DNA of 32,000 nucleotides. Origin: Planctomycetales bacterium. Lineage in GTDB: Bacteria; 4484-113; JAFGCY01. Below, piece after piece: positions 122 to 28,352 of the stretch. The number at the start of each line of letters is the position of its first letter. Position 1 is the first letter of the stretch. The position numbers were made by a program, and so were the translations under genes. Below the pieces are notes generated by a model. It did no database searches and had not been told where the DNA came from. It was given only the letters and a program-made list of their open reading frames with translations. The DNA is taken from contig CP060262.1 of NCBI GenBank assembly GCA_022646745.1, positions 1,920,001-1,952,000 on the forward strand. Reading direction: 5' to 3'.

Positions 122-883
122 TTAGGGGCGGCTGAAGCGGATAAGCAGGTCGATACGGCCCTGCGGATGGTTCACCGCGTATTCATTGACGCTGACCTTG
201 GAACCGTCAGCGAGCTCGATGGCGGGGCTGCCACTGCCGGGATAACCGGCGGCGATCGCCTGGATCTCGGTCAGGCTGGCCGCGTCAGCACGGATGCTGA
301 ACTCGGTCGGCAGCCCACCGGGGAAGGTATAGCTGTAACCATTGGGACCCTTGGCACAGACGGCGCCCTCGAACACGCCGAGCTGGCGGTCGAGCTGGTC
401 CACCAGCTGCATTGCGTTGCGGCTGGCACCGTTCTCGGCACGCTGCAGGGTGCTGTTGAGGAACTGGCTGCTTGAGGCGTTGATCAGGATCTCACTGGAG
501 CTGTCCTGGCCGTTGAAGCCGGAAGCCACGCCGACGTTGTTCACGCCCGGGCGGTCCATGGCACGATCGTAGATGAACTGGCCGAAGGCCAGGCCGACCA
601 CGATCAGGGCCACCAGCATGGAACCCGCGAAAGCACGCTGCGGGGTGAAGTTGAAGCGCTGCTGGGGCTCGATGCGCTCCATCAGCTTCGCGCGGAATGC
701 GCTGGGATGTACCTCAACCTCGGGGCCGCTGGACATCAGCAGGCCGATACGGCGCATCTGCTCATACTCGCGGCGCAGCTCAGGGTCCTGGGCCATCAGG
801 CGCTCGAACTCCGCCTTGTCGGCGAGTCCGATCTCCCCGTCCAGGTACTCATTGAGCCATCGTTTTGCCTTTGCTCGATTCAC
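122..883 (-). CDS. Membrane-anchored anti-sigma factor (non-zinc type)
   Basis: 253 aa. The GTG start overlaps the sigma stop (GTGA at 880-883). The N-terminal 50 aa follow the anti-sigma N-domain pattern (WLNEYLDGEIGLADKAEFERLMAQDPELRREYEQMRRI) but lack the Cys/His zinc ligands. One TM helix (FAGSMLVALIVVGLAFGQFIY) precedes a roughly 150-aa extracytoplasmic domain. The position immediately 3' of an ECF sigma gene is typical. Confidence 0.65.
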   Translation of the reverse strand: MNRAKAKRWLNEYLDGEIGLADKAEFERLMAQDPELRREYEQMRRIGLLMSSGPEVEVHPSAFRAKLMERIEPQQRFNFTPQRAFAGSMLVALIVVGLAFGQFIYDRAMDRPGVNNVGVASGFNGQDSSSEILINASSSQFLNSTLQRAENGASRNAMQLVDQLDRQLGVFEGAVCAKGPNGYSYTFPGGLPTEFSIRADAASLTEIQAIAAGYPGSGSPAIELADGSKVSVNEYAVNHPQGRIDLLIRFSRP

Positions 884-1910: not shown

Positions 1911-2423
1911 ATGATCAAGCTATACAGATTCCTGCTGGATGTATTGCTCGTTGCCGGCCTCACGGTGCTGGTCTCCGGCTGCCCTGCAGGCACAGGCAAG
2001 ACTGCAACATCCGGTTCTGCTCCGCAGCTGCCTGCATCATGGCCCCTGCCGATTCTCACGCTGCCTCCCGGCGCAGTTGAGAATCCGCTGGGAGTATCAA
2101 TGGGCGTCAGCGGGATGGAAAGCACGATCGAAAAAGCCGGTGTCGGTGATGACGACGGCCTGCTCTGGGCGGTCGGCTTCAGGACGGACGGGACATTTGC
2201 AGATGTGAAACAGCATGTTGAATCGTGCTTGGACATGACAAAGTTCAGCCAGATCCGCGAATCTGATTCTGAGGGCAGGCATGTGGTCGACTGGGAATCC
2301 GCCGATGGGAAAACCCACGTCCAGCTATTCCACTCGGAGAAGAACATGGTCAATAGTGGCAAGGGTGTCATAGGGATGACCAGCTACCCTGGCTACAAGC
2401 TTGAAGTTACCGTGATGAAGTAA
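1911..2423 (+). CDS. Hypothetical lipoprotein
   Basis: 170 aa. Signal peptide with lipobox LVSGC (Cys24). No domain recognised. Divergent from the ECF sigma operon. Confidence 0.7.
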   Translation: MIKLYRFLLDVLLVAGLTVLVSGCPAGTGKTATSGSAPQLPASWPLPILTLPPGAVENPLGVSMGVSGMESTIEKAGVGDDDGLLWAVGFRTDGTFADVKQHVESCLDMTKFSQIRESDSEGRHVVDWESADGKTHVQLFHSEKNMVNSGKGVIGMTSYPGYKLEVTVMK

Positions 2424-2425
2424 AC

Positions 2426-2490
2426 GGGGGAGCCGCGAAGCGCAGCTTCGCTGGCTTTGCCGCTTGAGCTTGCGCAGTTTCGGCTTCGCC
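2426..2490 (+). repeat. REP-like hairpin element, copy 2
   Basis: gggggagccgcgaagcgcagcttcgctggctttgccgcttgagcttgcgcagtttcggcttcgcc starts 2 nt after the lipoprotein stop. The stem is agccgcgaagc / gcttcgc(t)ggct around loop gca. It is collinear with copy 3 at 8238-8301. Confidence 0.65.
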
Positions 2491-2600
2491 TATGTATTCT
2501 AGATAGAAGTTATTGTAATGTAAAAGAAGAAGAGTCGATTTTGGCAAAACTTCGGGGCTGAACCATTTCCCTATACATTAGTGATCTAACACTACCTAGA

Positions 2601-3467
2601 TCAAATCTGGATCAATACAAAAGCTGTGCTCCAGTACTTTTCAGGCACCGAGACTTTTTCCGCCCTAAAATGAAGTCTGTTTGGTCTAGCATGTGAACTG
2701 ACTAATCGCAATACTAGGCTACGCACTGGTGTCTTTTTGTTAGAATCAAGGAAAATAACAATTCCAACCATGTCAGGTTCGATTCTTTCAGTTTCGCACG
2801 TCACTGAGATGTCAGCAAAATTCCGCGGATTTGGTTCATTGCTATATGCATCAGAGTTAATTGTGATTTTGTCATATGTGCAATCTACATGATTGTCTGG
2901 AGTATAGGACAAGAAGCTATTGGGTGCTGCAGTTGCCGATTTGACAAAAGCAGCTCCGTTAATCCAATTCCATAACACGTTTGTACATGTGTATCCAACG
3001 CGAGGTTCTCCTTCGCTCTTTAAGATCATTGTTCTTGTCAACAGCCCCTTTTCCAATAGAGATTGACAAGCAGGGTCATTGCCGGCTCTGTATAGAGTTC
3101 GTTGATTAAATCGCGCAAAGGTCGCAACCAATTCTTTCTCTTCTGGTGAAAAAACTTTGTAATCAGACCACAATCTCCATGAAGAAATGATGCTCTTGAG
3201 CCAATCCCAAATGTTGCCAGCAATGAAGAAAATCCACTGCATACCAAGAACGAAACTAGAAGCTAGTACACCTAGTACAATGGGAGAAATGCTCTCAATC
3301 TGAGGCCACATGTGTGGCATTACAGTTGATGAATCATCTAGGGTGATTCCAGGTACTGCATATGGAAATTTGACAATCAGGTACAGCAAGAAGAGGCCTG
3401 ACGATAAGAAGGCAAATTGAGTTAGTGGATTAATCTGCTTGATTTCCTTCAGGATATCTAAGTTCAT
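2601..3467 (-). CDS. Hypothetical two-TM membrane protein in an AT-rich islet (possible SieB-like core)
   Basis: 288 aa. Good SD (GGAGAAG 7 nt before the ATG). Two N-terminal hydrophobic helices (LTQFAFLSSGLFLLYLIVKF; ISPIVLGVLASSFVLGMQWIFFIAGNIW). These are followed by FSPEEKELVATFARFNQRTLYRAGNDPACQSLLEKGLL and a roughly 140-aa C-terminal domain with no recognised motif. G+C is much lower than in the flanks. Confidence 0.7.
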   Translation of the reverse strand: MNLDILKEIKQINPLTQFAFLSSGLFLLYLIVKFPYAVPGITLDDSSTVMPHMWPQIESISPIVLGVLASSFVLGMQWIFFIAGNIWDWLKSIISSWRLWSDYKVFSPEEKELVATFARFNQRTLYRAGNDPACQSLLEKGLLTRTMILKSEGEPRVGYTCTNVLWNWINGAAFVKSATAAPNSFLSYTPDNHVDCTYDKITINSDAYSNEPNPRNFADISVTCETERIEPDMVGIVIFLDSNKKTPVRSLVLRLVSSHARPNRLHFRAEKVSVPEKYWSTAFVLIQI

Positions 3468-3770
3468 GTTTGCTTCTCCAAAAATATCTAATTTACAATT
3501 TTCTCAACTTCATTCTTGCAGATTGAGGACAGCCAAGCAGTTCATGGAAGCCAAGTTCCATAAGATGGAACGCTGATTATTCGATCGTACAATGATTCTA
3601 AGGGCAACTCAAGTGCTTGAATCTAGGAATATCTCGCATTTAGCATAACATTGTAGTCAAACATTTCGACATACGGATTGGAAATCTTGAACAGTTTCAA
3701 TTTGATGAAGTGTGTGCCCTCATCACCTACTGCTAGAGAAGGTATCACAACCGCAACCAACAATCTTCAA

Positions 3771-3787
3771 TCCCGCAAAGGGCGGGA
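3771..3787 (-). terminator. Possible terminator hairpin after the AAA+ ATPase gene
   Basis: The minus strand reads TCCCGC-CCTTT-GCGGGA followed by TTGAAGATTGTT. It lies about 39 nt 3' of the stop at 3826. The stem is short and the U-tract is imperfect. Confidence 0.35.
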
Positions 3788-3825
3788 CTGACCTCCGCGC
3801 CTCGCTACACCCTACAAATGAGGTC

Positions 3826-5163
3826 CTAGTACCTCAGGATGATTTCCGTGCGCTGGTTCTTCATCGGCAGCTTGCGCTTGCGGCCGCCCTGCTCATTGCT
3901 GCGCGGCGTGCGGTAGAACACGATCTCGCTCTTGGGGGTGATCCCGTCGCTGGCCAGCTCGTCCGTCTCCTGGATGCGGGCCTCCAGCAGGTCGCCCTCG
4001 TGGATCAGGCCGTAGGCATGCAGCTCGGCCACTTTGGTATCGATGTACTTCTCCACAGCGCGTACCAGCGGGCGCACACCGAGCTCGCGGTCCATCCCAC
4101 GGTCCACCAGCCAATCACGCACCTCGTCATTGAGCTGCAGCGTGAAGCCGAGGCCCGCGAAGCGCTCGGCGGAGATGTTGAGCAGCTTCTGCAGGATCTT
4201 GTACAGGCTTGGACGGTCCAGCGCACGGAACACGATGAACTCCGTCAGTCGGTTGCGGAATTCCGGCGTGAAGATGTTCTTCATCGCCTCCTTGGCCGCG
4301 ACGTAGATCTGCTGGTCGCTGCGGATCTCGGCCACGCTGTCCGTGTTGCGGAAGCCGATGCGGTTCTGGTGCAGGATCTTCTCGATGTCGCCGGCGCCGA
4401 CGTTGGAGGTCATGATCACGATGCAGTCCTCGAAGCTGACCTCGCCGGGGTCGTCCTTCGTGCGGCGCGCGAGCGTGATACGGCCCTCGTCCATGATCTG
4501 CAGCAGCAGGTTGTGCAGGCGGAAGTGCGCCTTCTCGATCTCATCAAACAGGATCAGGCGGTTCGTCGTGCCCTCCACGTTTTCCTTGGAGAGGATGGCG
4601 GGCAGGTCGGAGCCGATGTAGCCGGGAGGGGCACCGATCAGGCGGGCGATGGCATGCGGCTCGCTGTATTCGGAGCAGTCAACCTTGAGGATCGCGCGCC
4701 AGTCGTTGTGCAGCGCCTTGGCCAGCGCGCGCACGGTTTCGGTCTTGCCGACGCCGGTCGGGCCGGCGAAGAACATGGTGGAAATCGGGCGGCCGGATGT
4801 ACGGAAGCCCTCGCGGGAACGCAGCAGCGCCCGCGCGATGGCGTCGATCGCGCGCTCCTGGCCGATCACCTCGCGGTGCAGCACCTCGATGATGTCGTCA
4901 ACGGGGCTGCGCGCACCGGGCGGGATGATGATCGGGATGGTGGCCTCGTAGTCGGTGATGATGCCGCCGCCGTTCTTCAGGCCGGGGTTGCCGGCATCCG
5001 CTTCGGCACCGGATTCCGCACTGGCGGCGAGCAGCTCCTGCTCCTCCTCGACGGCTTCTTCCTCGACCAGCTCATCATTGACGGACTCACCCAGGCCCTT
5101 GTCATCCTTGAGAGGCTTCTTCGGCGCGCCCTTCTTGCTGTCACTGTTTTTCTTTCCCGGCAT
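3826..5163 (-). CDS. Single-module Clp/Hsp100-type AAA+ ATPase (ClpA/B D2-like only)
   Basis: 445 aa. Walker A GPTGVGKT, pore-loop-like GAPPGYIG, Walker B LILFDEIEKA, sensor-1 IVIMTSN, Arg-finger region FTPEFRNRL and sensor-2 GVRPL in a D2-small-like C-terminus. The N-terminal ~75 aa are a K/E-rich low-complexity region. No D1 module or N-domain. Confidence 0.85.
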   Translation of the reverse strand: MPGKKNSDSKKGAPKKPLKDDKGLGESVNDELVEEEAVEEEQELLAASAESGAEADAGNPGLKNGGGIITDYEATIPIIIPPGARSPVDDIIEVLHREVIGQERAIDAIARALLRSREGFRTSGRPISTMFFAGPTGVGKTETVRALAKALHNDWRAILKVDCSEYSEPHAIARLIGAPPGYIGSDLPAILSKENVEGTTNRLILFDEIEKAHFRLHNLLLQIMDEGRITLARRTKDDPGEVSFEDCIVIMTSNVGAGDIEKILHQNRIGFRNTDSVAEIRSDQQIYVAAKEAMKNIFTPEFRNRLTEFIVFRALDRPSLYKILQKLLNISAERFAGLGFTLQLNDEVRDWLVDRGMDRELGVRPLVRAVEKYIDTKVAELHAYGLIHEGDLLEARIQETDELASDGITPKSEIVFYRTPRSNEQGGRKRKLPMKNQRTEIILRY

Positions 5164-5227: not shown

Positions 5228-8017
5228 TCAGGGGCTGACCGGTTCGAGGATGTTCCTTCCGTAGATGATCCGGCCCTGGCTGTCCACGAAGGAATCGCCG
5301 TTCTCGACCTGGTCGTTGATCTGGTGCTCCCAGAGGAGCGATCCGCCCGAATCAAGCAGCATGAGCCAGTGATTGCTGGTCACAAGCACATTGCCAGACT
5401 GGTCAGGAGTCAAACCGTATGGCTTTGCTCCCTGGCTGAAAGAAGTACTCCAGATGAATTCACCAGCCGGGCTGACCCTGTATGCACTGTCGTTATCCGC
5501 GACAAGCAGGCTGCCATCGAGCCAGATCACCGGGGATCTGTAAGAGTGGATACCCTCGAGTTCGTAGGTCCAGCGAAGTTGTCCCGCTGGGTCCAGAGAA
5601 ACGAGGCCGGTATTCATCAAGGTGAAGTAGATATTGCCCTGCAGGTCGATACCGCACTCCCGTGCGATCTTCTCGTCTGCTTCGTAGTCCCATAGCCGGT
5701 TTCCGGAAGCATCTAGGGCGTGCAGCCGGCCGTCCACATCGACAACATAGATCTCCCCGCTGAGTGACTGGGAAGGTGACAGCTCCAGCCTGGCAATCTG
5801 ATTGCTCATCCAGACAAGGTTGCCATCCAGGCTGATGCAGTAGACGCGGCCATCGACACAAGCCTGCAGCAAGTTGCCATCGATGGCAGGAACTGGCCCG
5901 GCAACCAGGGGGCCGCCAGCCTTGTAGGCCCATTTCTGGTTGCCATCCTCGTCCAGGGCGTACAGGTTGAAATCTTCACAGGAAACGTAAACCGTGCCGT
6001 CTGGACCGGCATAGGGGGACTGGCCAATGTTGGACGGGAAGGTCTTGCTCCAGGCATCACTCAGGTCACTGTTCAGCACACGGATGGTCGAGGCCACACT
6101 GCTGATGATGCGGCCATTTCCATCCATCACCTGCTCGAACCCCGCAGCGCCTGAATTGAAGTCCTGCTCGAGCACCCGCTGGATGTTTCCAAGCGGAAAC
6201 AGGTTGCCGGTTTGCCCGGTATGCCTGCCGTCGTAACCACTGGTTGGCCGGGGTGACGATGCTGGCTGCGGGTTGACCAGCACAGTGGCCTGCGCTGAGG
6301 ACTGCCAGCCGCGACTGTCAAACGCGATCACCTTGGCCTGCGGAGCACCGGCTTGTTCGAATACATGTTCTACAACCGCCTCGGTGCCTGTGCTGTCGAT
6401 GGTGCCATCGCCATCAAAGTCCCAGCCATAGCTGGCAATGGCATCGTCCGGTGAGGTTGAAGCCGATGCATCAAGCGTGTATGTGCCTCCGGCAAATCCA
6501 TAGGGGGGATTGACTGCCAGGACGACCTCCGGCAGCTGGCCCTGGACGATGACCTGCGTGTAATCGCGGTCCCACAGGCCGTCGTTGTCAATCACTCGCA
6601 GCTGCGGCTTCAATCCCAGCGGCCCGGTTGCGGTCTCCAGCAGCAGCGGATACTGCAAGTACTGGAGTGACTGGGCATCCCAGACATCAAAGATCCCATC
6701 GCCATCAAGGTCCCAGCCGCTGCCAACGATTGTCCCGTCTGCATCGGTGCTGGCTGATCCATCGAACAGCACATCCAGGGGAGGGACGCCATAGTTCGGA
6801 TCACAGGATGCATCGGCCTGAGGCCGCTGGCCCTCAGTGACAATGAGCGTTGCTCCGCTGAGCCAGACGGAGTCACCAGCCTTGGCGCGCACGGTGATCC
6901 TGCACACACCTGGGCTTGTGGTATCAGGCAGGTATGTGCCGGAGGATGCAGTTTCCGCCAGTCTCGGGTCGCCATCAAGGGCAAACTGGTATTCTTCTGC
7001 CCCGCTGGCCAGCAGTGCCGTTGAAAAACCCGCCGGTACATCATTGCTCTGCACAATCAGGCCGAATTCCATGACACTCTCCGGCAGGGAAGCTGCGAAC
7101 AGCATCTCTCCCGGTTCGGAAACATTGCCATTGTGATCAACCGACTGGATCCGCAAGTAACGTCCGTCGGGATACGCAGGCATGATCAGCCCCGGATATC
7201 TGGCCAGGCCTGGAATCTGCTTCACCCCGGGAGAATCTGTCCTGTGGAAAGGCAATGCACTGTGGCTGACAAGATAGCCGGCCACGTCTTCATCAGCTGG
7301 TGCCAGCCACGAGATCTCAGAACCTCCGGCCACCGGCTTTGCATCACCGCCGGTCGGGGCTGCCGGTTCGGCCTTGTCAGAGTTGTCAAGTGGGACCACG
7401 CCGATGCCGACAAGGTCCAGCGGATTGCTGGAGCTGACATTGATGGCAATGAAGCAGTTTCCGGAGCTGGAAAGGTAGTCGGCCCCGGCCTGGACGTTGC
7501 TTGCGGGAGCCAGCACGAGGTGCGGCTGATCGAACGGGCCATACCAGTCCCACCTGCCAGTGGCATAGTTGGCAATCGCCACGCTGTATCCGGAGCCGGA
7601 CTGCTGCGATCCGAGGGGATAGTTCACGTCGATGCCAAGGCTGCCGGGCTGCTGGCCTGACAGGGGGATACGGTAAAGGGCCCAGCTTGATTCGCCAAAT
7701 TCAGGGGCAAGCCTGGCAGCTTCTCCTGCTTCATCCACATCTGGGGAGGCAAGGAACCAGTCCTTGCCGAAACTGTATTGTTCCTCTGACGAAGTAGCAC
7801 TGGATCCGCGAATGCCGTAGGTGTCCACTTCCCAGGGCTGCAAACCATCGGTTGGCAGGGCAGTCGGGAATGCGACCGACGCAGGCGTACCGGTATCGGC
7901 GGCAGGCGCATTGGCGAAAGGCAGTTCGTTGATTTCGGCAGGAATGGTACCTGCGCTGCCGCAGGCTGCCACAAGCAGGCAGGCAATCAAGCCCGTGCAG
8001 ATTCTTGCACTTCTCAT
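5228..8017 (-). CDS. Exported lipoprotein with PKD-like modules and a C-terminal PQQ-like (BamB-like) beta-propeller
   Basis: 929 aa. Signal plus lipobox LLVAAC (Cys19). PKD-like segments (DGSASTDADGTIVGSGWDLDGDG; LDASASTSPDDAIASYGWDFDGDG). Repeated propeller blades (LYALDEDGNQKWAY, VYCISLDGNLVWM, LHALDASGNRLWDY, LVSLDPAGQLRWTY, LMLLDSGGSLLWEH). SD AGGGGAA before the ATG. Confidence 0.85.
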   Translation of the reverse strand: MRSARICTGLIACLLVAACGSAGTIPAEINELPFANAPAADTGTPASVAFPTALPTDGLQPWEVDTYGIRGSSATSSEEQYSFGKDWFLASPDVDEAGEAARLAPEFGESSWALYRIPLSGQQPGSLGIDVNYPLGSQQSGSGYSVAIANYATGRWDWYGPFDQPHLVLAPASNVQAGADYLSSSGNCFIAINVSSSNPLDLVGIGVVPLDNSDKAEPAAPTGGDAKPVAGGSEISWLAPADEDVAGYLVSHSALPFHRTDSPGVKQIPGLARYPGLIMPAYPDGRYLRIQSVDHNGNVSEPGEMLFAASLPESVMEFGLIVQSNDVPAGFSTALLASGAEEYQFALDGDPRLAETASSGTYLPDTTSPGVCRITVRAKAGDSVWLSGATLIVTEGQRPQADASCDPNYGVPPLDVLFDGSASTDADGTIVGSGWDLDGDGIFDVWDAQSLQYLQYPLLLETATGPLGLKPQLRVIDNDGLWDRDYTQVIVQGQLPEVVLAVNPPYGFAGGTYTLDASASTSPDDAIASYGWDFDGDGTIDSTGTEAVVEHVFEQAGAPQAKVIAFDSRGWQSSAQATVLVNPQPASSPRPTSGYDGRHTGQTGNLFPLGNIQRVLEQDFNSGAAGFEQVMDGNGRIISSVASTIRVLNSDLSDAWSKTFPSNIGQSPYAGPDGTVYVSCEDFNLYALDEDGNQKWAYKAGGPLVAGPVPAIDGNLLQACVDGRVYCISLDGNLVWMSNQIARLELSPSQSLSGEIYVVDVDGRLHALDASGNRLWDYEADEKIARECGIDLQGNIYFTLMNTGLVSLDPAGQLRWTYELEGIHSYRSPVIWLDGSLLVADNDSAYRVSPAGEFIWSTSFSQGAKPYGLTPDQSGNVLVTSNHWLMLLDSGGSLLWEHQINDQVENGDSFVDSQGRIIYGRNILEPVSP

Positions 8018-8180
8018 CTGTTTCCCCTACAGGCAGCTTACTGCCCCAGTGATCATTCCCAATCAGGACCTGCCTGCCCGCCGGCTTCCCGTTCACGGCA
8101 GGCGCCTCCCGCTGCGGGTGCAGCCCGGGCAGGTCCATACATTATAGGGACGAGGGGGCGGGGAAAGGGTTACAGGAAGT

Positions 8181-8236
8181 GGTCAGCGGTCAGTAGTCAG
8201 TGGTCAATGGGCAGAATCAGAATGAGAAACAGAAGC
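8181..8236. repeat. Heptanucleotide tandem tract (unit GGTCAGT, drifting)
   Basis: In-register heptamers: ggtcagc ggtcagt agtcagt ggtcaat gggcaga atcagaa tgagaaa cagaagc. The tract is directly followed by REP-like copy 3. Confidence 0.75.
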
Positions 8237-8237
8237 A

Positions 8238-8301
8238 GGGGGAGCCGCGTAGCGAAGCTGCGCTGGCTTTGTCGGAAGTTCTTGCGCAGCTTCATCCCGC
8301 C
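8238..8301 (+). repeat. REP-like hairpin element, copy 3
   Basis: gggggagccgcgtagcgaagctgcgctggctttgtcggaagttcttgcgcagcttcatcccgcc is collinear with copy 2. The stem is retained despite substitutions (gcgtagc-gaa-gctgcgc, one G-T wobble). Confidence 0.6.
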
Positions 8302-22093: not shown

Positions 22094-22621
22094 TCAGTCG
22101 TCATCATCGTCGTCATGGCCGCGCCGCTCGCCTTGCATGGCGGGGGCAGCGCCTGAGCTGACGGGCAGCAGGCCATCGCCGCGGATCTCCGGGTGCGATA
22201 TCTTGCCGCCGAGGTTGGCGGTCAGCGCGAACAGCACACAGGCCGCCAGTGAGACCAGCAGCGCCAGTCCGGTGGACCAGCCGGGGTACTGCTCGCGGCC
22301 GCGGCCGGCGAGCAGTGCAATGATTGCCAGGATCCCTCCGGCCAGTCCGGCGATGCGCGCGATGTCCGCCATTTCCTCATGCTCGTGGATCGCCGGCTCG
22401 CTCACATTGGGCTGGTGTTCCACCATATGCTCCGCCGGCTCACCGCTGAGGTACACCGGTACGGTGAAGATGCCGACGGCCAGCAGCGTTGCCAGGCCGG
22501 CCGAGAACAGCGCACGGCTGCGGAAGCTGAAGCCGCCGCCGAGAAGCAGTAGCGCGAACACACTGCCGATCACCGGGATGTGGTTGAGCATTAGGTGCAG
22601 GTGGGCCTGGTTGATCTGCAT
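22094..22621 (-). CDS. Hypothetical four-TM membrane protein, His-rich, poly-Asp tail
   Basis: 175 aa. Strong SD AAGGAG. N-terminus HLHLMLNHIPVIG. Four hydrophobic helices. A loop HMVEHQPNVSEPAIHEHEE. C-terminus GHDDDDDD. It loosely resembles DUF2231-type proteins from memory. Confidence 0.7.
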   Translation of the reverse strand: MQINQAHLHLMLNHIPVIGSVFALLLLGGGFSFRSRALFSAGLATLLAVGIFTVPVYLSGEPAEHMVEHQPNVSEPAIHEHEEMADIARIAGLAGGILAIIALLAGRGREQYPGWSTGLALLVSLAACVLFALTANLGGKISHPEIRGDGLLPVSSGAAPAMQGERRGHDDDDDD

Positions 22622-22711
22622 GGACTTACTCCTTTGGCAATCAGTCTGCGCCGCGAAAGCGCAACAGCTGCGACGAGGATTATCGAGTGTCCGATGGAAT
22701 TTGTTTCAATG

Positions 22712-22723
22712 ATTTCCGGAAAT
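22712..22723. promoter_or_regulatory. Perfect 12-bp palindrome ATTTCCGGAAAT in the cassette-A / membrane-gene spacer
   Basis: The palindrome is seen directly at 22712-22723, about 90 nt upstream of ATG 22621. It is a candidate dimeric regulator site. There is no other support. Confidence 0.2.
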
Positions 22724-22754
22724 GAGGATGCCTGTCAGTTCAGCCCAGCCGCAT

Positions 22755-24320
22755 TCAGGGCCTGAGCGCCACCAGCTCTTCATCCTCGGTGGTGTAGAAG
22801 GTGCCATCGCCGGTCACCACTATGTCCTGCTTCATGTCCGGGATGCGGTACAGTTCGTGGCCATCGCGGTTGAAGGCGGCCAGGTGGCCCTGGCTGCGCA
22901 CGAAGACCTGGCCATCCGGGCCGAACTCAACCTGGTCGAAGTAGTTGCCGGAGCGCTTGTACTGCCACAGCACGCTGCCTTCCGGGCTGATGCACTGCAG
23001 CAGGTAATGCGAGATCACGTAGATCCGCCCATCTGGCCCGACGCTGAGCTCGCCGCTTGGTCCGTTGTCAATCGTGATCCCCCAGATGCGCTCGCCGGTG
23101 CGACTGTTGAGCCGCAGCAGTTCCGGTTCGCCGGACAGGCTGCCGCTGGTATAGCCGAACAGGTAGATTGAATCTCCGGCGGGCAGCAGGATGTCCCGCT
23201 CACTGGCGGCATCAATGCTGTAGCGGCTGCCGTCCTCACGCCACAGTTCGCGGCCGTTGCCGGCATCCAGCGCAAACAAGCTGCAGCCGTGGCTGCCATT
23301 GCGGCTGCAGATGGCATAGAGCACATTGCCGGGGCCCAGCAGCAGCTTGTCAAATTCATTGACATCTGGATCACTGATCCCGCGCTGCCAGCGAAGCTTG
23401 CCGTCCGCTGCGATGCAGGCCAGCCCATGCTCAGCATCACGCCTGCTGGCGCGGCTGGCAACGAAGCATGTGCCATCCGCCGCGGTGGTGAGGCCGCTGC
23501 CCGGGATGCCGTCGATCGCCGTGCGCCACAGCTCGGAGCCGCTGCGGTCCATGCAGACGAGGTCCGTCTGGCGCACCGTCTCCATCGAACCGGGCCAGCC
23601 CTCGCGCTCCTGCTCGCGGCTGCCTTCCAGCACGAACAGCACGTTGCCATTGCCGTCATCGAATGGCCCGGCGGTCGGAGCCAGCCTGTCACCGGCCTTC
23701 ACACCGGCGAGGCTCGGGACCTCCCACAGGCGCTGGCCGCTTCCGCCGTCGATGTAGACGACGGCATTCGAGGTGCGGATCGCCAGGTCGCCGTTGGCGA
23801 GGGGCTGGCGCTGCTTGAGCGACCAGTTGCCAATCCCGTAGCTCCACTGCATCTCGCCCTCGTCAACGCAGAACAGCATGTTGCCATCCACGCCCTGCAC
23901 ATAGCAGCGCCCGTCCGGCCCGAGGCTCAGGCCAGCCAGCTTGCCACCGATGTGGTAGCGCCAGAGATAGAGCTCCGCCCGTGCGGCGGCCGCGGCGGCC
24001 TTGTCAGCCCTGTGCTTGTCAATCACCTGCTGCTGCACCACCGCGGCATCCACCACACCGGGCTCGACGGTCCCCTGTGCGGCGGACTGGCTTTCGACCA
24101 CCACCGGCGGCCGCATCGCGAAGTAGACAACCGCCACCACCATCGCGGCCATGATCGCCACGAGCAGCACGGTCTGCCAGACCCGCAGGCTGTGGAAGAC
24201 CAGCTGCTCCGAGGGCTGGATCTCCTCCTCGACGTAGTTGTCCTCCAGTGCATCGCTGAAGGCCACCGCCGGGTCCAGCCGTTCATTGATCTCCTGCGGG
24301 TCAGGCCGCTCCTCAATCAC
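22755..24320 (-). CDS. Cassette A large subunit: acidic-tail, single-TM-anchored PQQ-like beta-propeller protein
   Basis: 521 aa. GTG start preceded by SD GGGGGTGA and overlapping the upstream stop (GTGA). Acidic N-tail (ERPDPQEINERLDPAVAFSDALEDNYVEEEIQPSEQ). TM helix WQTVLLVAIMAAMVVAVVYFAM. Propeller blades (LFCVDEGEMQWSY, VVYIDGGSGQRLWE, LVCMDRSGSELWR, LFALDAGNGRELWR, LLRLNSRTGERIWG, LQCISPEGSVLWQY). Paralogue of 25088-26662. Confidence 0.85.
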   Translation of the reverse strand: MIEERPDPQEINERLDPAVAFSDALEDNYVEEEIQPSEQLVFHSLRVWQTVLLVAIMAAMVVAVVYFAMRPPVVVESQSAAQGTVEPGVVDAAVVQQQVIDKHRADKAAAAAARAELYLWRYHIGGKLAGLSLGPDGRCYVQGVDGNMLFCVDEGEMQWSYGIGNWSLKQRQPLANGDLAIRTSNAVVYIDGGSGQRLWEVPSLAGVKAGDRLAPTAGPFDDGNGNVLFVLEGSREQEREGWPGSMETVRQTDLVCMDRSGSELWRTAIDGIPGSGLTTAADGTCFVASRASRRDAEHGLACIAADGKLRWQRGISDPDVNEFDKLLLGPGNVLYAICSRNGSHGCSLFALDAGNGRELWREDGSRYSIDAASERDILLPAGDSIYLFGYTSGSLSGEPELLRLNSRTGERIWGITIDNGPSGELSVGPDGRIYVISHYLLQCISPEGSVLWQYKRSGNYFDQVEFGPDGQVFVRSQGHLAAFNRDGHELYRIPDMKQDIVVTGDGTFYTTEDEELVALRP

Positions 24321-24901
24321 TGTTCACCCCCGCTGGATTGCCCGCCTGCGGAGCTAGCCTGATCAAGTTCCTTCTTCTTCTCCTTGTATTCGATCAGTTC
24401 CCGGCACTTGCCGCAGACCGTCTGCTCAAGTCCGGCCTTGAATTTCTCCGGATCCGCCATTGCGGAATTGCTGGTCCGGGCCGGCACAAACTCGCCCGCA
24501 TGCCCGCAGGCGTAAGTGAATTCATATTTGTAATACAGCTCGGGGGTAGTGATCGGGTTGACAAGTTTCGGATCTGGCTGGCCGACCTGGATCACCGTCT
24601 GGTGCTCATCCTGGCTGACAATGTAGGCCGGCAGGTCGCCGACCAGCTGCCCGTCACCAGTCGGAATCCCTGTCAGAGAGCTGGCTGCATCAGGTCCGGC
24701 TGGCTGGAGAGCACCAGCGGCTGCCTGCGTGCGCATGCGCGGAATGCTTACGAAGACTATCAGCACAACCATCAGGGCCAGCAGCAGCGCGATCACCACA
24801 TTCCTGATGACGAATATGCGCGCGAGCTTTGTTTCCGGCCGCTCCCGGCGCCTCGGCCTCCACCTGTCCCTGTCCTTTCGTCTGTCCTGCAATCCCGCCA
24901 C
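24317..24901 (-). CDS. Cassette A small subunit: Arg-rich-tail single-pass protein with C-x-H...C-x-x-C motif
   Basis: 194 aa. GTG start. Basic N-tail (RRKDRDRWRPRRRERPETK). TM IFVIRNVVIALLLALMVVLIVFV. Conserved C-terminal block YACGHAGEFVP...AMADP...CGKCRELIEYKEKKKE. Paralogue of 26659-27204. Confidence 0.75.
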   Translation of the reverse strand: MAGLQDRRKDRDRWRPRRRERPETKLARIFVIRNVVIALLLALMVVLIVFVSIPRMRTQAAAGALQPAGPDAASSLTGIPTGDGQLVGDLPAYIVSQDEHQTVIQVGQPDPKLVNPITTPELYYKYEFTYACGHAGEFVPARTSNSAMADPEKFKAGLEQTVCGKCRELIEYKEKKKELDQASSAGGQSSGGEQ

Positions 24902-24931
24902 CTCTGTCCCGTGACGATTTCCTGTATGTCA

Positions 24932-24960
24932 TGAGACCCCGGAAACCACATTCCGGTTCA
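24932..24960 (-). promoter_or_regulatory. Candidate ECF-type promoter of cassette A (TGAACC-N18-TCTCA)
   Basis: The minus strand reads TGAACCGGAATGTGGTTTCCGGGGTCTCA. The -35-like and -10-like blocks are the only conserved islands shared with the cassette B upstream region, apart from the 24-nt leader. 30 nt separate the -10-like block from the GTG. Confidence 0.35.
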
Positions 24961-25087
24961 CCAGCAGTGATTCCAGAATACCGCAGATCCCGGGTGAGTC
25001 TCGTAGCAGGTCCGACAAGCGCCCATGCTGGAATGACAGACTGGCTGTCGCTGGGTGATCGACTGGCTGAACAGGGGGTATAGCTGA

Positions 25088-26662
25088 TCAGGGCTGGAAT
25101 GCGACCAGGTCCCCGTCCTCGACGGTGTAGAAAATCCCATTTTCATCAATCGCAAAGGGTTTATTGCCAGTTGGCAGTCGGATTAGTTCCTGGCCTGTGG
25201 AATCAAGGACCCTGATCCGGCTGTCGTTGTGAACGAAGATCCGCCCATCTGCAGCGGGCTCGACCTGGAAGTAGTTGGAAGTGCTGGTTTGCAATTCCCA
25301 CTGCACCTGGCCAGCCGGGCTGATGCAGCTCAGCAGGCCATGCGTGATCAGGTAGATGCGTCCGTCTGGGCAGACGTCGAAGTCATACTGCGGCTCGCTG
25401 TTAAGGTTGAGGGACCAGTTGATCCGGCCGGTTCGACTATCCAGAGCAAACAATTCCAGAAAGTCGGATTGGCTACCGCTGCGGTAGCCATAGACAAACA
25501 GGACACCATTGGCAGCCTGCGTCACTGCTCCGCCAGCCCGATGTGTGCCCAGTCGCAACCGCTCACCGGTTTCACTCCACAGGAGCCTGCCGCTGCGAGT
25601 GTCCAGCGCATGGACTGTGCCGGTGAAACTGTTGCTGTTACCACTGAAGGCCAGCAGCACACCCGCTGCATCCAGGCGCAGCATGTCGATCTGCGCTGTC
25701 AGTTCCGTTGAAGCCTCGAATTGCCACAACAGTTTTCCGTCCCGGTTGATGGCGGCAATCCGGTTTGGGTCTCCATGCTTCGAATGGTTGCTGGCAAAGT
25801 AACTCGTGCCATCGGGACCGACGACCAGGCCATCGCCAGGCCGGCCATCAATGGCCTGTTGCCAGATTGTCCTTCCTTCATTGTCCGCGCAACGCAGGGC
25901 ACACTGCATCACCTTCTGCATGCTGCCCGGCCATTCCGGGTTTTCCTGTTCGCGGCATGCATCCATGGTGAACAGCAGGTTTCCACGCCCATCTGCAAAT
26001 GGTCCGGAGGTCGGCACTTCCGTTGCCAGGTGCCTTGGCAGGTCCTGCGCCGGCTGCTTCCAGACCTGCCGGCCAGTGGAGCCATCCAGGTAGAACATCG
26101 CCATTTCGTTGCGAATTGCCACGTCGCCATTTTCCATTGCCAGAGTCTGCTCCGGCCGCCAGCGACCGAGCCCGAAACTCCACAGCAGGGAACCTTCGCG
26201 GATTGCGTACAGTGTGTTTCCCTTAATGCTTTGGCAATAGCAGACATCGCCTGGCCCGAGGTACACGCCTGATGCATCGTCCCCGATGTGGTAGCGCCAG
26301 AGGAACAGTTCGGCACGGGCGGCCGCTATCGCGGCCTTCTCAGCAGCCAGTCCGGGTTTGTCAGGCGGCCTGGCAATTACAATCTCGCGGATCGGGCTTT
26401 GCTGGGGTAAGGGGGGCGGTGCCGTGATTTCAGGCGTTGCCGGTTCAGGGCGTTGCATCGTGAAGTAGACAACCGCCACCACCATCATGGCCATGATCGC
26501 CACAAGCAGCACGGTCTGCCAGGCACGAAGGCTGTGGAATGTAAGCTGCTCCGAAGGCTGGATCTCCTCTTCGACATAGTTGTCCTCTAGTGCATCACTG
26601 AAGGCCAGCGCCGGGTCCAGCCGCTCGTTGATCTCCTGCGGGTCTGGTCGCTCCCCATTCAC
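25088..26662 (-). CDS. Cassette B large subunit: acidic-tail, single-TM-anchored PQQ-like beta-propeller protein
   Basis: 524 aa. GTG start with SD GGAGGTG and a GTGA overlap with the upstream stop. 62 of the first 70 residues are identical to cassette A by hand alignment. The propeller part is clearly homologous but much more diverged. Confidence 0.85.
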   Translation of the reverse strand: MNGERPDPQEINERLDPALAFSDALEDNYVEEEIQPSEQLTFHSLRAWQTVLLVAIMAMMVVAVVYFTMQRPEPATPEITAPPPLPQQSPIREIVIARPPDKPGLAAEKAAIAAARAELFLWRYHIGDDASGVYLGPGDVCYCQSIKGNTLYAIREGSLLWSFGLGRWRPEQTLAMENGDVAIRNEMAMFYLDGSTGRQVWKQPAQDLPRHLATEVPTSGPFADGRGNLLFTMDACREQENPEWPGSMQKVMQCALRCADNEGRTIWQQAIDGRPGDGLVVGPDGTSYFASNHSKHGDPNRIAAINRDGKLLWQFEASTELTAQIDMLRLDAAGVLLAFSGNSNSFTGTVHALDTRSGRLLWSETGERLRLGTHRAGGAVTQAANGVLFVYGYRSGSQSDFLELFALDSRTGRINWSLNLNSEPQYDFDVCPDGRIYLITHGLLSCISPAGQVQWELQTSTSNYFQVEPAADGRIFVHNDSRIRVLDSTGQELIRLPTGNKPFAIDENGIFYTVEDGDLVAFQP

Positions 26663-27204
26663 CTTGCACCTCCATTGGTCCGCCCACTGGATGCGCTGGC
26701 CTGGTCTGGTTCCTGCTTCTTCTCTGAGTATTCAAGCAATTCGCGGCATTTCCAGCAGATCCTCAGCTCCTGTTGCGCCTGGTACTTCAAGGGGTCTGCC
26801 ATTGCGGGATTGCTCGGATGGGAAGGAATGAACTCTCCCACATGTCCGCAGGCATAGCTGAATTCGCCCTTGTCAACCACCACCCGCTTCAGCTTCGGGT
26901 TGACGGACTTCGGGTCAGGCTCGCTGACGTAGATAACTGTCTGGCTTACCTTCGGTCTGACGACGTGGACCGGCTGGTCACCAGTCTGCAGATCATCGCC
27001 TGTCGGCAGGGCATTGCCTCTGGAAACCTGCGCCCGCATGCGCGGAATGCTTACGAAGACTATCAGCACAATCATCAGGGCCATCAGTAGTGCAGTCAAC
27101 ACATTCCTGATGACGAAAATGCGCGCGAGCCTCGTTTCCGCGCGCTCCCTGCGCTGCAGCATTGATCTGTCCCTCTCCTTTCGTCTGGCCTTCAATCCCG
27201 CCAC
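26659..27204 (-). CDS. Cassette B small subunit: Arg-rich-tail single-pass protein with C-x-H...C-x-x-C motif
   Basis: 181 aa. GTG start. Basic tail RRKERDRSMLQRRERAETR. TM IFVIRNVLTALLMALMIVLIVFV. Motif YACGHVGEFIP...AMADP...CWKCRELLEYSEKKQE. Confidence 0.75.
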   Translation of the reverse strand: MAGLKARRKERDRSMLQRRERAETRLARIFVIRNVLTALLMALMIVLIVFVSIPRMRAQVSRGNALPTGDDLQTGDQPVHVVRPKVSQTVIYVSEPDPKSVNPKLKRVVVDKGEFSYACGHVGEFIPSHPSNPAMADPLKYQAQQELRICWKCRELLEYSEKKQEPDQASASSGRTNGGAR

Positions 27205-27234
27205 CTCTGTCCCGTGACGAATTCCTGTGAACAG

Positions 27235-27262
27235 ACAGACCGCTTAACATGCAATCCGGTTC
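27235..27262 (-). promoter_or_regulatory. Candidate ECF-type promoter of cassette B (CGAACC-N18-TCTGT)
   Basis: The minus strand reads GAACCGGATTGCATGTTAAGCGGTCTGT. It is in the same register relative to the GTG start as in cassette A (30 nt from the -10-like block to the start). Confidence 0.35.
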
Positions 27263-27305
27263 GCGCGGTCCCAAACATGGATTACGCAGATCGCCATTCT
27301 GCACT

Positions 27306-27314
27306 TGCTAGAAT
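27306..27314 (+). promoter_or_regulatory. Possible extended -10 (TGcTAGAAT) for the dehydrogenase gene
   Basis: ttgctagaat lies about 57 nt upstream of ATG 27371. SD GGGAAGG lies 7 nt before the start. No convincing -35. Confidence 0.25.
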
Positions 27315-27370
27315 AGCCTCGCCGGCTGCCGCGGTGGCCGGGAAACACTGATTGATACAGGGAAGGCATC

Positions 27371-28294
27371 ATGAGCAAGAGCGGATTCAACAGCGTCGGC
27401 GTGATCGGCATCGGCACGATGGGCAACGGCATCGCCCAGGTGGCAGCCCAGAGCGGCTTCACCACCAAGGTGGTGGACATCTCGCAGGAGAATGTGGACC
27501 GCGGGATGGGGATCATCGGCAAGAACCTCGACCGCATGGTGGCCAGCTTCGAGAAGAGCGGTGGCGAGCGGGGATTGAGCCAGGCTGACCGTGACGCGGC
27601 CTGGGGCCGGCTCAGCGCTTCGACGGACCTCGCGTCGCTGCTGGACTGCGACATCATTATTGAGGCCGCCGTAGAGCGCGAGGACATCAAGCTGCAGATT
27701 TTCGGCACGCTCAAGGAAAAGGGCTACGGCGGGATCATCGCCTCAAACACCAGCTCGATCAGCATCACCCGCCTGGCGGCCGGCGTCAGCGACCCGGCGA
27801 AGTTCATGGGCATGCACTTCATGAACCCGGTGCCGATCCAGCTCGGCGTGGAGATCATCCGCGGCCTGCTCACCGATGACGATACCTACAACAAGGTGGT
27901 CGGGCTCTGCCAGGACATGGGCAAGGTGGAGATCCCGGCGGAGGACAAGGCCGGCTTCGGCATCAACCGCATGTGGGTGCCCTTCGTTAACGAGGCGATC
28001 CGCGTCGTCGAGGAAGGCGTGATGGCGCCGGATGAGGCGGACAAGTGCACGCTCTGCCTCGGGCACAAGATGGGCCCGCTGGTCACCGCGGACTTCGTCG
28101 GGCTGGATGTGATCCTGTTCATCTGCAACGTGCTTGAGGAGGAGTTCGGCTCCGCCTACAAGGCCAGCCCGCTGCTCAAGCGCCTCGTGGAGGCCGGCCA
28201 GCTCGGGGTCAAGAGCGGCACCGGCTTCTACGTCTGGGAGGGCGGCCAGGCCACAGGCGTCAACCCGGCGGTGCAGCGCTACCGCATCGGCTGA
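27371..28294 (+). CDS. hbd: 3-hydroxyacyl-CoA (3-hydroxybutyryl-CoA) dehydrogenase
   Basis: 307 aa. N-terminal Rossmann motif VGVIGIGTMGNGIAQVAA. IASNTSSISIT and MHFMNPVP motifs typical of the 3HCDH family. C-terminal GVKSGTGFY. Confidence 0.9.
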   Translation: MSKSGFNSVGVIGIGTMGNGIAQVAAQSGFTTKVVDISQENVDRGMGIIGKNLDRMVASFEKSGGERGLSQADRDAAWGRLSASTDLASLLDCDIIIEAAVEREDIKLQIFGTLKEKGYGGIIASNTSSISITRLAAGVSDPAKFMGMHFMNPVPIQLGVEIIRGLLTDDDTYNKVVGLCQDMGKVEIPAEDKAGFGINRMWVPFVNEAIRVVEEGVMAPDEADKCTLCLGHKMGPLVTADFVGLDVILFICNVLEEEFGSAYKASPLLKRLVEAGQLGVKSGTGFYVWEGGQATGVNPAVQRYRIG

Positions 28295-28352
28295 TCCTTC
28301 ACTGATGTGCAATGGCGATATCGAAAGGCGTTATTGCCTTATAATTGCCCGC

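Follow-up and report, generated by a model that had tools for sequence, protein, structure and literature searches.

In this study, we analysed two tandem gene pairs in a stretch of 32,000 nt from a Planctomycetales bacterium (contig CP060262.1, positions 1,920,001 to 1,952,000), which is referred to as the window throughout. Each pair consists of a small and a large gene, all four genes lie on the minus strand, and pair A occupies positions 22755-24901 and pair B positions 25088-27204, with open reading frames (ORFs) and coordinates as reported in a preliminary description of the same DNA. Between the two pairs, the N-terminal tails and membrane helices are nearly identical while the C-terminal domains have diverged, and both pairs appear to belong to a gene cassette of narrow distribution. 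The following features of the two pairs are used below.

24317-24901, minus strand: small gene A, 194 aa (ORF, alignment, AlphaFold2 model)
22755-24320, minus strand: large gene A, 521 aa (ORF, Pfam PQQ_2, AlphaFold2, Foldseek)
26659-27204, minus strand: small gene B, 181 aa, with basic N-terminal tail, one membrane helix, linker and a CGH...CxxC domain (ORF and alignment)
25088-26662, minus strand: large gene B, 524 aa, with acidic N-terminal tail, one membrane helix, Pro-rich linker and PQQ_2 propeller
24713-24925, minus strand: conserved module 1, copy A, comprising a 24-nt leader and the tail and membrane helix of small A (codons 1-63)
27016-27228, minus strand: conserved module 1, copy B (nucleotide alignment to copy A)
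24111-24320, minus strand: conserved module 2, copy A, comprising the acidic tail (codons 1-46) and membrane helix (codons 47-70) of large A
26453-26662, minus strand: conserved module 2, copy B (alignment to copy A)
24347-24580, minus strand: predicted C-terminal knuckle domain of small A, residues 108-185 (AlphaFold2, family alignment)
26689-26922, minus strand: predicted C-terminal knuckle domain of small B (alignment)
22758-23975, minus strand: predicted propeller ectodomain of large A (Pfam, AlphaFold2, Foldseek)
25091-26311, minus strand: predicted propeller ectodomain of large B (alignment, Pfam)

The GTG start codon of each large gene overlaps the TGA stop codon of its small gene in a 4-nt GTGA in both pairs (TTGA in a sister strain), and overlaps of 11-14 nt between small and PQQ_2 gene are found in three relatives (L003-L005, see below). 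Such an overlap of start and stop is typical of translational coupling, which we would expect for the small and large genes here. Each of the four proteins contains exactly one hydrophobic segment. The database copy of small B, P0008, derives from a Planctomycetales metagenome-assembled genome, where it is labelled a hypothetical protein, and large B matches P0002, likewise from Planctomycetales, with the identity judged by eye.

In the large proteins, a tail of 50 residues with 12-13 Asp/Glu and 3 Lys/Arg precedes the membrane helix, which is followed by a variable linker, Pro-rich in copy B, and by the propeller. Pfam PQQ_2 (PF13360) is matched with 84.6 bits by large A and 74.9 bits by large B, at a gathering cut-off of 27.6. 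The AlphaFold2 model of large A, built on an alignment of 6 sequences and of moderate quality (mean predicted local distance difference test, pLDDT, of 71; predicted template-modelling score, pTM, of 0.66), displays ~40 beta strands across residues 118-519. Among its Foldseek matches, designed 9- and 10-bladed propellers (Cake9/10) ranked best, followed by YxaL and BamB with probability 1.0, E values of 1e-12 to 1e-13 and target-normalised TM-scores of 0.53-0.60, and we propose that the propeller of large A has about 10 blades. With their above-threshold PQQ_2 match and a predicted all-beta propeller superposing on both structures, the large proteins resemble BamB and YxaL, a likeness which probably extends to an extracytoplasmic location of the propeller. 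Unlike BamB, however, they carry the acidic tail in front of their sole hydrophobic segment and are anchored by a membrane helix, they are paired with a small knuckle-domain protein, and their strand number fits best to 9- and 10-bladed designs. Identity with BamB proper could be ruled out, with scores of 16.7-29.8 bits for the equivalogs TIGR03300 and NF008351 against cut-offs of 285 and 423, as could a PQQ-dependent dehydrogenase (TIGR03075, 16.9 bits against a cut-off of 480). The large proteins contain no lipoprotein signal with a lipobox Cys, their first Cys residing at position 139 or 141. NCBIfam searches returned only sub-threshold propeller matches and PADLOC no defence-system match.

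The small proteins start with a basic tail of 12-13 Lys/Arg and a net charge of +8, followed by the membrane helix, a disordered linker and the C-terminal domain. An AlphaFold2 model of small A, built on an alignment of 16 sequences, shows a helix at residues 22-62 (pLDDT ~94) and a well-defined C-terminal domain at residues 110-185 (pLDDT 88-95), in which C132-G-H134 sits in a beta hairpin and C163xxC166 at the start of a helix. All 16 family members share Cys132, Gly133, Cys163 and Cys166 and have either His or Cys at position 134, and this CG[HC]...CxxC pattern suggests a four-ligand metal site, so that the knuckle domain probably binds a metal ion. For this domain neither a Pfam family nor a sequence match in the PDB nor a Foldseek fold match was obtained, and Pfam returned no family common to the 16 small proteins. 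As single-pass proteins with a Cys/His motif, encoded downstream of a motif resembling a promoter for extracytoplasmic function (ECF) sigma factors, the small proteins are reminiscent of zinc-binding anti-sigma (ZAS) factors. In contrast to these, they carry the motif on the C-terminal side of the membrane helix, in the form CG[HC]...CxxC rather than HxxxCxxC. From the position of the motif, and with no sigma gene adjacent, assignment as a ZAS anti-sigma factor was rejected; the Pfam matches listed for the 16 proteins included no anti-sigma family.

An exhaustive hidden Markov model search with a profile of the small protein yielded 12 clusters in 1.84 billion representatives, the 11 further clusters having E values of 1e-21 to 1e-3. 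Family members are marked by LAxxRN before the membrane helix and by the C-terminal pattern PELY..F.Y.CG[HC].G.F.P...C..C. In all seven contexts which could be recovered, the small gene adjoins one or two PQQ_2 genes, the product of each displaying an N-terminal tail and one membrane helix. Gene orders and net tail charges, the latter given as small protein / propeller subunit(s), are as follows.

Window pair A: +8 / -10
Window pair B: +8 / -9
L001 (sister strain): +8 / -8
L003: small - PQQ - PQQ; +5 / +6, +5
L004: small - PQQ - PQQ; +1 / -5, +2
One JGI contig: small - PQQ - PQQ
L005: small - PQQ, contig breaking off within the first PQQ gene or shortly behind it; +3 / +4
Second JGI contig: small - PQQ, contig likewise breaking off within the first PQQ gene or shortly behind it
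L006: PQQ - small - PQQ; +3 / -10, -5
L007: small - PQQ; -2 / +2

Among the relatives, the second propeller subunit of L004 comes nearest to the large proteins of the window (24.5% over 440 aa, E = 8e-19). Word-indexed searches recovered strain copies only, and peptide-pattern scans of GTDB representative genomes and JGI metagenomes with the tail patterns of the window recovered no relatives; a scan with a subfamily alignment of the small protein gave 3 loci, the full alignment of 16 members being too diverse for this purpose. Literature searches returned no description of a small knuckle protein combined with anchored PQQ_2 subunits. Since an anchored PQQ_2 gene lies adjacent wherever DNA context exists, we regard the small knuckle protein and its one or more anchored PQQ_2 subunits, as judged from these genomic contexts, as a rare and apparently undescribed cassette. 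As a separate observation, the helix regions of the small protein and of the first propeller subunit are similar to each other in L003 (6001-8005) and L005 (300-1530) (35.6% over 45 aa, E = 6e-4), with ARLAVARN against KKLAVFQN, and the anchors of the subunits in these distant cassettes may have a common origin.

The preliminary description had proposed that tails and membrane helices are near-identical between the two pairs while the ectodomains have diverged. A computed alignment confirms that this mosaic is real and that identity is not uniform along the proteins: in the large proteins (MAFFT), 62 of the 70 N-terminal residues are identical, compared with 178 of 458 elsewhere (Fisher p = 1e-15), and in the small proteins 46 of 63, compared with 61 of 124 elsewhere (Fisher p = 0.002). 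The 60-nt helix stretch at 24121-24180 differs from its counterpart at 26463-26522 at exactly 3 positions, and both tail sequences quoted earlier are present. In the DNA itself, blastn aligns two conserved blocks. The first (87% over 202 nt) already starts 24 nt before the start codon of the small gene, and the second (79% over 414 nt) leads from the C-terminal domain of the small protein into the large gene, of which it covers the first 208 nt. Tandem receptor paralogues whose anchor or cytoplasmic parts are homogenised while their ectodomains have diversified include clustered protocadherins and paired immune receptors. The two pairs resemble them in the tandem arrangement, in their variable ectodomains next to conserved or homogenised membrane and cytoplasmic parts, and in regional gene conversion being a candidate cause. 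They differ in that the case is bacterial and involves two subunits, and in that support for conversion is purely statistical and points to an old event.

To separate purifying selection from gene conversion limited to the 5' ends, comparison of synonymous (dS) and non-synonymous (dN) divergence along the genes had been suggested, and its outcome is mixed: the lower dS of the modules speaks for conversion and the acidic tail for purifying selection. Nei-Gojobori estimates of dS are 0.40 for the first 70 codons of the large gene and 1.14 for the rest, and 0.33 for the first 63 codons of the small gene and 1.23 for the rest. Synonymous divergence is thus ~3-fold lower in the tail and helix modules than in the ectodomains, clearly below the flanks as expected for gene conversion. 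A bias from differing dN was avoided by a same-codon test, which is restricted to codons with the identical amino acid in both copies. In this test the fraction of identical codons amounts to 0.77 in the large module (0.55 expected at saturation) and 0.79 in the small module (0.49 expected), compared with 0.55 in the large ectodomain (0.52 expected) and 0.57 in the small ectodomain (0.58 expected). Synonymous identity differs between module and ectodomain with Fisher p = 0.004 and 0.02 for the two genes, combined 1e-4. The ectodomains are therefore saturated while the modules are not, which argues for a younger common ancestry of the module DNA, and the low dS of the modules consequently favours a contribution of gene conversion or recombination. 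Within the large-gene module, the acidic tail shows 13 synonymous and 5 non-synonymous differences (dS 0.64, dN 0.049, dN/dS 0.08) and the helix a dS of 0.125 and a dN of 0.098. The ratio of 0.08, together with the recurrence of the tail motif in distant relatives, therefore indicates real and strong purifying selection on the exact sequence of the acidic tail. The small tail is under weaker sequence constraint, with a dN/dS of 0.5 and 9 substitutions in 27 residues, but its net charge of +8 is retained in A, B and the sister-strain orthologue A'. In our reading of these sequence comparisons, selection and partial homogenisation of the DNA would both have contributed to the mosaic.

The sister strain is represented by L001, a contig from another metagenome, which is syntenic with the window and 96-99% identical to its flanks but contains a single pair of type A. 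The L001 sequence upstream of this pair matches the region upstream of pair B in the window and switches to an A-like sequence at the common GATCTGCG, ~88 nt before the start of the small gene (L001 9253-11700 against window 22700-27370). Pair B was therefore either deleted in the sister strain or inserted in the window genome. In the comparison of pair A with L001, the large gene shows no difference over its last 745 nt and the rest of the pair has a dS of ~0.16-0.22, while the linker and C-terminal domain of small A (window 24321-24712) are hyperdivergent between the strains. For the C-terminal domain, a dS of 1.15 at a dN/dS of 0.10 thus indicates a deeply diverged allele under purifying selection, which points to an allele brought in by recombination. 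G+C content at third codon positions (GC3) sets large B, small B and small A (0.69-0.71) apart from large A (0.85) and from most of the neighbouring genes measured (0.83-0.93), and marks these three genes as compositionally atypical. The adjacent 3HCDH gene has diverged more between window and L001 on its side towards the pairs, with an identity of 90-96%, than on the opposite side, with 95-100%. Taken from these comparisons, the locus appears to be a recombination-prone, strain-variable island. In L001, an extra gene of 132 aa (7879-8277) is located between the cytochrome c and 3HCDH genes, which is absent from the window (28294-28304).

Pair B may accordingly be an import and not the product of a duplication in place, or else the sister strain may have lost its copy. 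Import as an allele or xenologue from a diverged relative, via recombination anchored in the 3HCDH gene, is the most serious alternative to our reading, and we consider it possible though the less probable of the two. The modules would then be similar as the sole strongly conserved part of the pair in that lineage. The single pair of the sister strain with its B-like upstream region and switch at GATCTGCG, the low GC3 of three of the four genes in comparison with large A and the host genes, and the reduced identity of 3HCDH on the side of the pairs are all in line with such an import. However, import by itself leaves the unsaturated synonymous sites of the modules unexplained, and pop-out recombination, by which B was lost from the sister strain, fits these data equally well. 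No homology was found between the spacers following large B and large A.

Purifying selection alone, acting on a uniformly old duplication whose modules seem younger through codon bias or the noise of short segments, is unlikely. It would account for the low dN/dS of the acidic tail in the presence of 13 synonymous differences, and for the recurrence of the tail motif and of the helix-adjacent LAxxRN and LxxxQT in distant relatives. GC3 is in fact somewhat higher in the modules (0.90 compared with 0.84 in large A, 0.76 compared with 0.68 in large B), and scans which assume no partition are not significant. However, a same-codon fraction of 0.77-0.79 in the modules is far above the 0.49-0.55 expected while the ectodomains are at expectation, the Fisher tests distinguish the two regions, and even the non-coding 24-nt leader contains only 1 difference between A and B, with an identity of only ~50-57% further upstream.

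Conversely, recombination between tandem repeats could have homogenised tails and helices which have no special shared function and whose charges are incidental. The 3-fold lower dS of both modules and the dS of 0.125 at a dN of 0.098 in the large-protein helix agree with this, as does the evident tendency of the locus to recombine, with a sister strain lacking pair B and carrying a diverged C-terminal domain of the small protein (dS 1.15) beside 745 identical nucleotides. Gene conversion as the only cause is nevertheless very unlikely. It requires two separate tracts, each coinciding with a tail and helix module, it explains neither the dN/dS of 0.08 in the acidic tail nor the family-wide occurrence of its motif, and the tails are also conserved in L001 with its single pair; furthermore, the modules are already 12% divergent at the nucleotide level and A groups with A' rather than with B. 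A recent A-B conversion, suggested by changes in the large tail specific to the sister strain (12 compared with 2, p = 0.013), was discarded, as most of these changes abut the hyperdivergent patch in the small gene of the sister strain.

Opposite charges of the tails, as previously described, hold for both window pairs, with net values of +8 and +8 for the small and -10 and -9 for the large proteins. They are not conserved across the cassette family, where L003 and L005 are like-charged and L007 shows -2 / +2; charge complementarity is specific to the lineage of the window and not a property of the family. A direct electrostatic contact between the tails of small and large protein, as had been suggested, would consequently be a lineage-specific possibility. 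It should be noted that the positive-inside rule by default places a basic tail before a membrane helix. By contrast, an acidic motif (E/R)LD...A(L/F)(D/S), found as ERLDPAVAFSDALED in the window, EELDVLGALD in L003 and EELDALEALD in L006, is common to L003_P2 and both propeller subunits of L006, and points to a conserved cytoplasmic docking element. In all homologous propeller subunits, the 15 residues preceding the helix include 3-6 Lys/Arg, compared with 1-3 following it, and these subunits are therefore predicted to be inserted N-in with the propeller outside. Placement of both window tails on the same side of the membrane is supported indirectly, by analogy to these homologues. The apparent shift of positive charge to the unusually basic small partners, a single observation, fits the idea of interacting tails.

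Building on the gene structure, the mosaic, the dS/dN pattern, the conservation of the cassette and the folds observed here, we propose a model which we consider slightly more likely than not. Each copy would encode a small single-pass protein and a translationally coupled single-pass PQQ_2 propeller protein, both inserted N-in, which in the most likely arrangement would assemble as a membrane-anchored hetero-oligomer. The tail and helix modules would form the interface for assembly and cytoplasmic contacts, while propeller and knuckle domains would reside in the periplasm. Strong purifying selection on the anchor modules would have acted together with a younger ancestry of the module DNA, the latter arising from old gene conversion or recombination before the split from the sister strain. 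Near-identical anchors could then allow subunits of A and B to co-assemble, or to use one cytoplasmic partner, with different outer domains.

Several points weigh against this model. In GENECONV-like conversion tests, which assume no prior partition, no tract reaches significance, with permutation p = 0.22 for the longest run and 0.32 for the maximal segment. In the large module A differs from A' at 14 positions and from B at 25, in the small module at 13 and at 32-33; with A nearer to A' than to B, there is therefore no sign of recent conversion and any conversion must be old. The dS estimates rest on 24-70 codons, a Cys3His site would be unusual in the oxidising periplasm, and no neighbouring gene gives a clue to the function of the cassette. 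Finally, the large proteins of the window have lost the residues which would fix their topology, with only 1 Lys/Arg before the helix and 1 after. The last point, together with a net tail charge of -10 and a Cys3His knuckle better suited to a reducing compartment, would be compatible with tails on opposite sides of the membrane, since N-out insertion is known for ProW and the Pf3 coat protein; this would render the propeller cytoplasmic and a contact between the tails impossible, but it is the least probable of the alternatives, given the clearly basic N-side flanks of all homologous propeller subunits, post-helix linkers which are of variable length in both partners and Pro-rich in copy B of the large proteins, and the extracytoplasmic location of the structural relatives PQQ_2, BamB and YxaL. 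Moreover, a small tail with 12-13 Lys/Arg cannot plausibly cross the membrane, and the knuckle domain is therefore expected outside in any case.

Upstream of both pairs, a further conserved element was found.

24934-24959, minus strand: GAACC-N16-GGTCT upstream of small A, putative ECF-sigma-like -35/-10 boxes
27237-27262, minus strand: GAACC-N16-GGTCT upstream of small B, putative ECF-sigma-like -35/-10 boxes

These are the only 2 matches in the window, compared with 0.04 expected, both located 33-58 nt upstream of the small genes, and the pairs of L001 (9362-9387) and L002 are likewise preceded by the motif. It resembles the -35/-10 boxes of ECF sigma factors. The boxes are conserved while the N16 spacer has diverged, and the boxes therefore appear selected rather than homogenised. 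Scans for sigma-70 promoters and terminators remained at chance level. The nearest ECF sigma gene (Sigma70_r2/r4_2, Sigma70_ECF) is located at 880-1497 on the minus strand, 23 kb from the pairs, and none is adjacent. Going further, one could envisage a new ECF-regulated, periplasm-facing propeller complex in which, within this lineage, positive charge has moved from beside the membrane helix of the propeller subunit to the small subunit, the propeller tail has turned into a conserved acidic helix for docking, an electrostatic clasp of basic and acidic tails sets pairing and topology, and homogenised clasps allow the two pairs to exchange subunits and thus a combinatorial use of outer domains, a conjecture which we consider distinctly unlikely to hold in its entirety.

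A few side observations concern the wider surroundings. In L003 and L005, a related [GC]AAC-N17-18-GTC[TG] is found just before the start of the small gene. An ORF of 253 aa (122-883, minus strand) overlaps the ECF sigma gene downstream and has no Pfam match; it could encode an anti-sigma factor. A protein of 929 aa with PKD and PQQ_2 domains (5228-8017, minus strand) is the product of another propeller gene of atypical composition, with a low GC3 of 0.67, and window positions 2001-4000, with a GC content of 0.46-0.48 compared with ~0.62-0.67 elsewhere, may be a foreign segment. A hydrophobic and probably membrane-bound protein of 175 aa with the C-terminal end HDDDDDD is encoded 133 nt downstream of large A (22094-22621, minus strand); it is conserved at this place in the sister strain and matches no family.

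The finding of the cassette resolves no long-standing question. If the model is true, however, the pairs would represent an undescribed membrane complex, in which a small knuckle subunit is joined by one or two anchored propellers and which is restricted to a few uncultured lineages, probably of planctomycetes. They would also provide a clean bacterial case of modular evolution, in which outer domains diversify on a constant assembly module and the locus varies even between near-identical strains.

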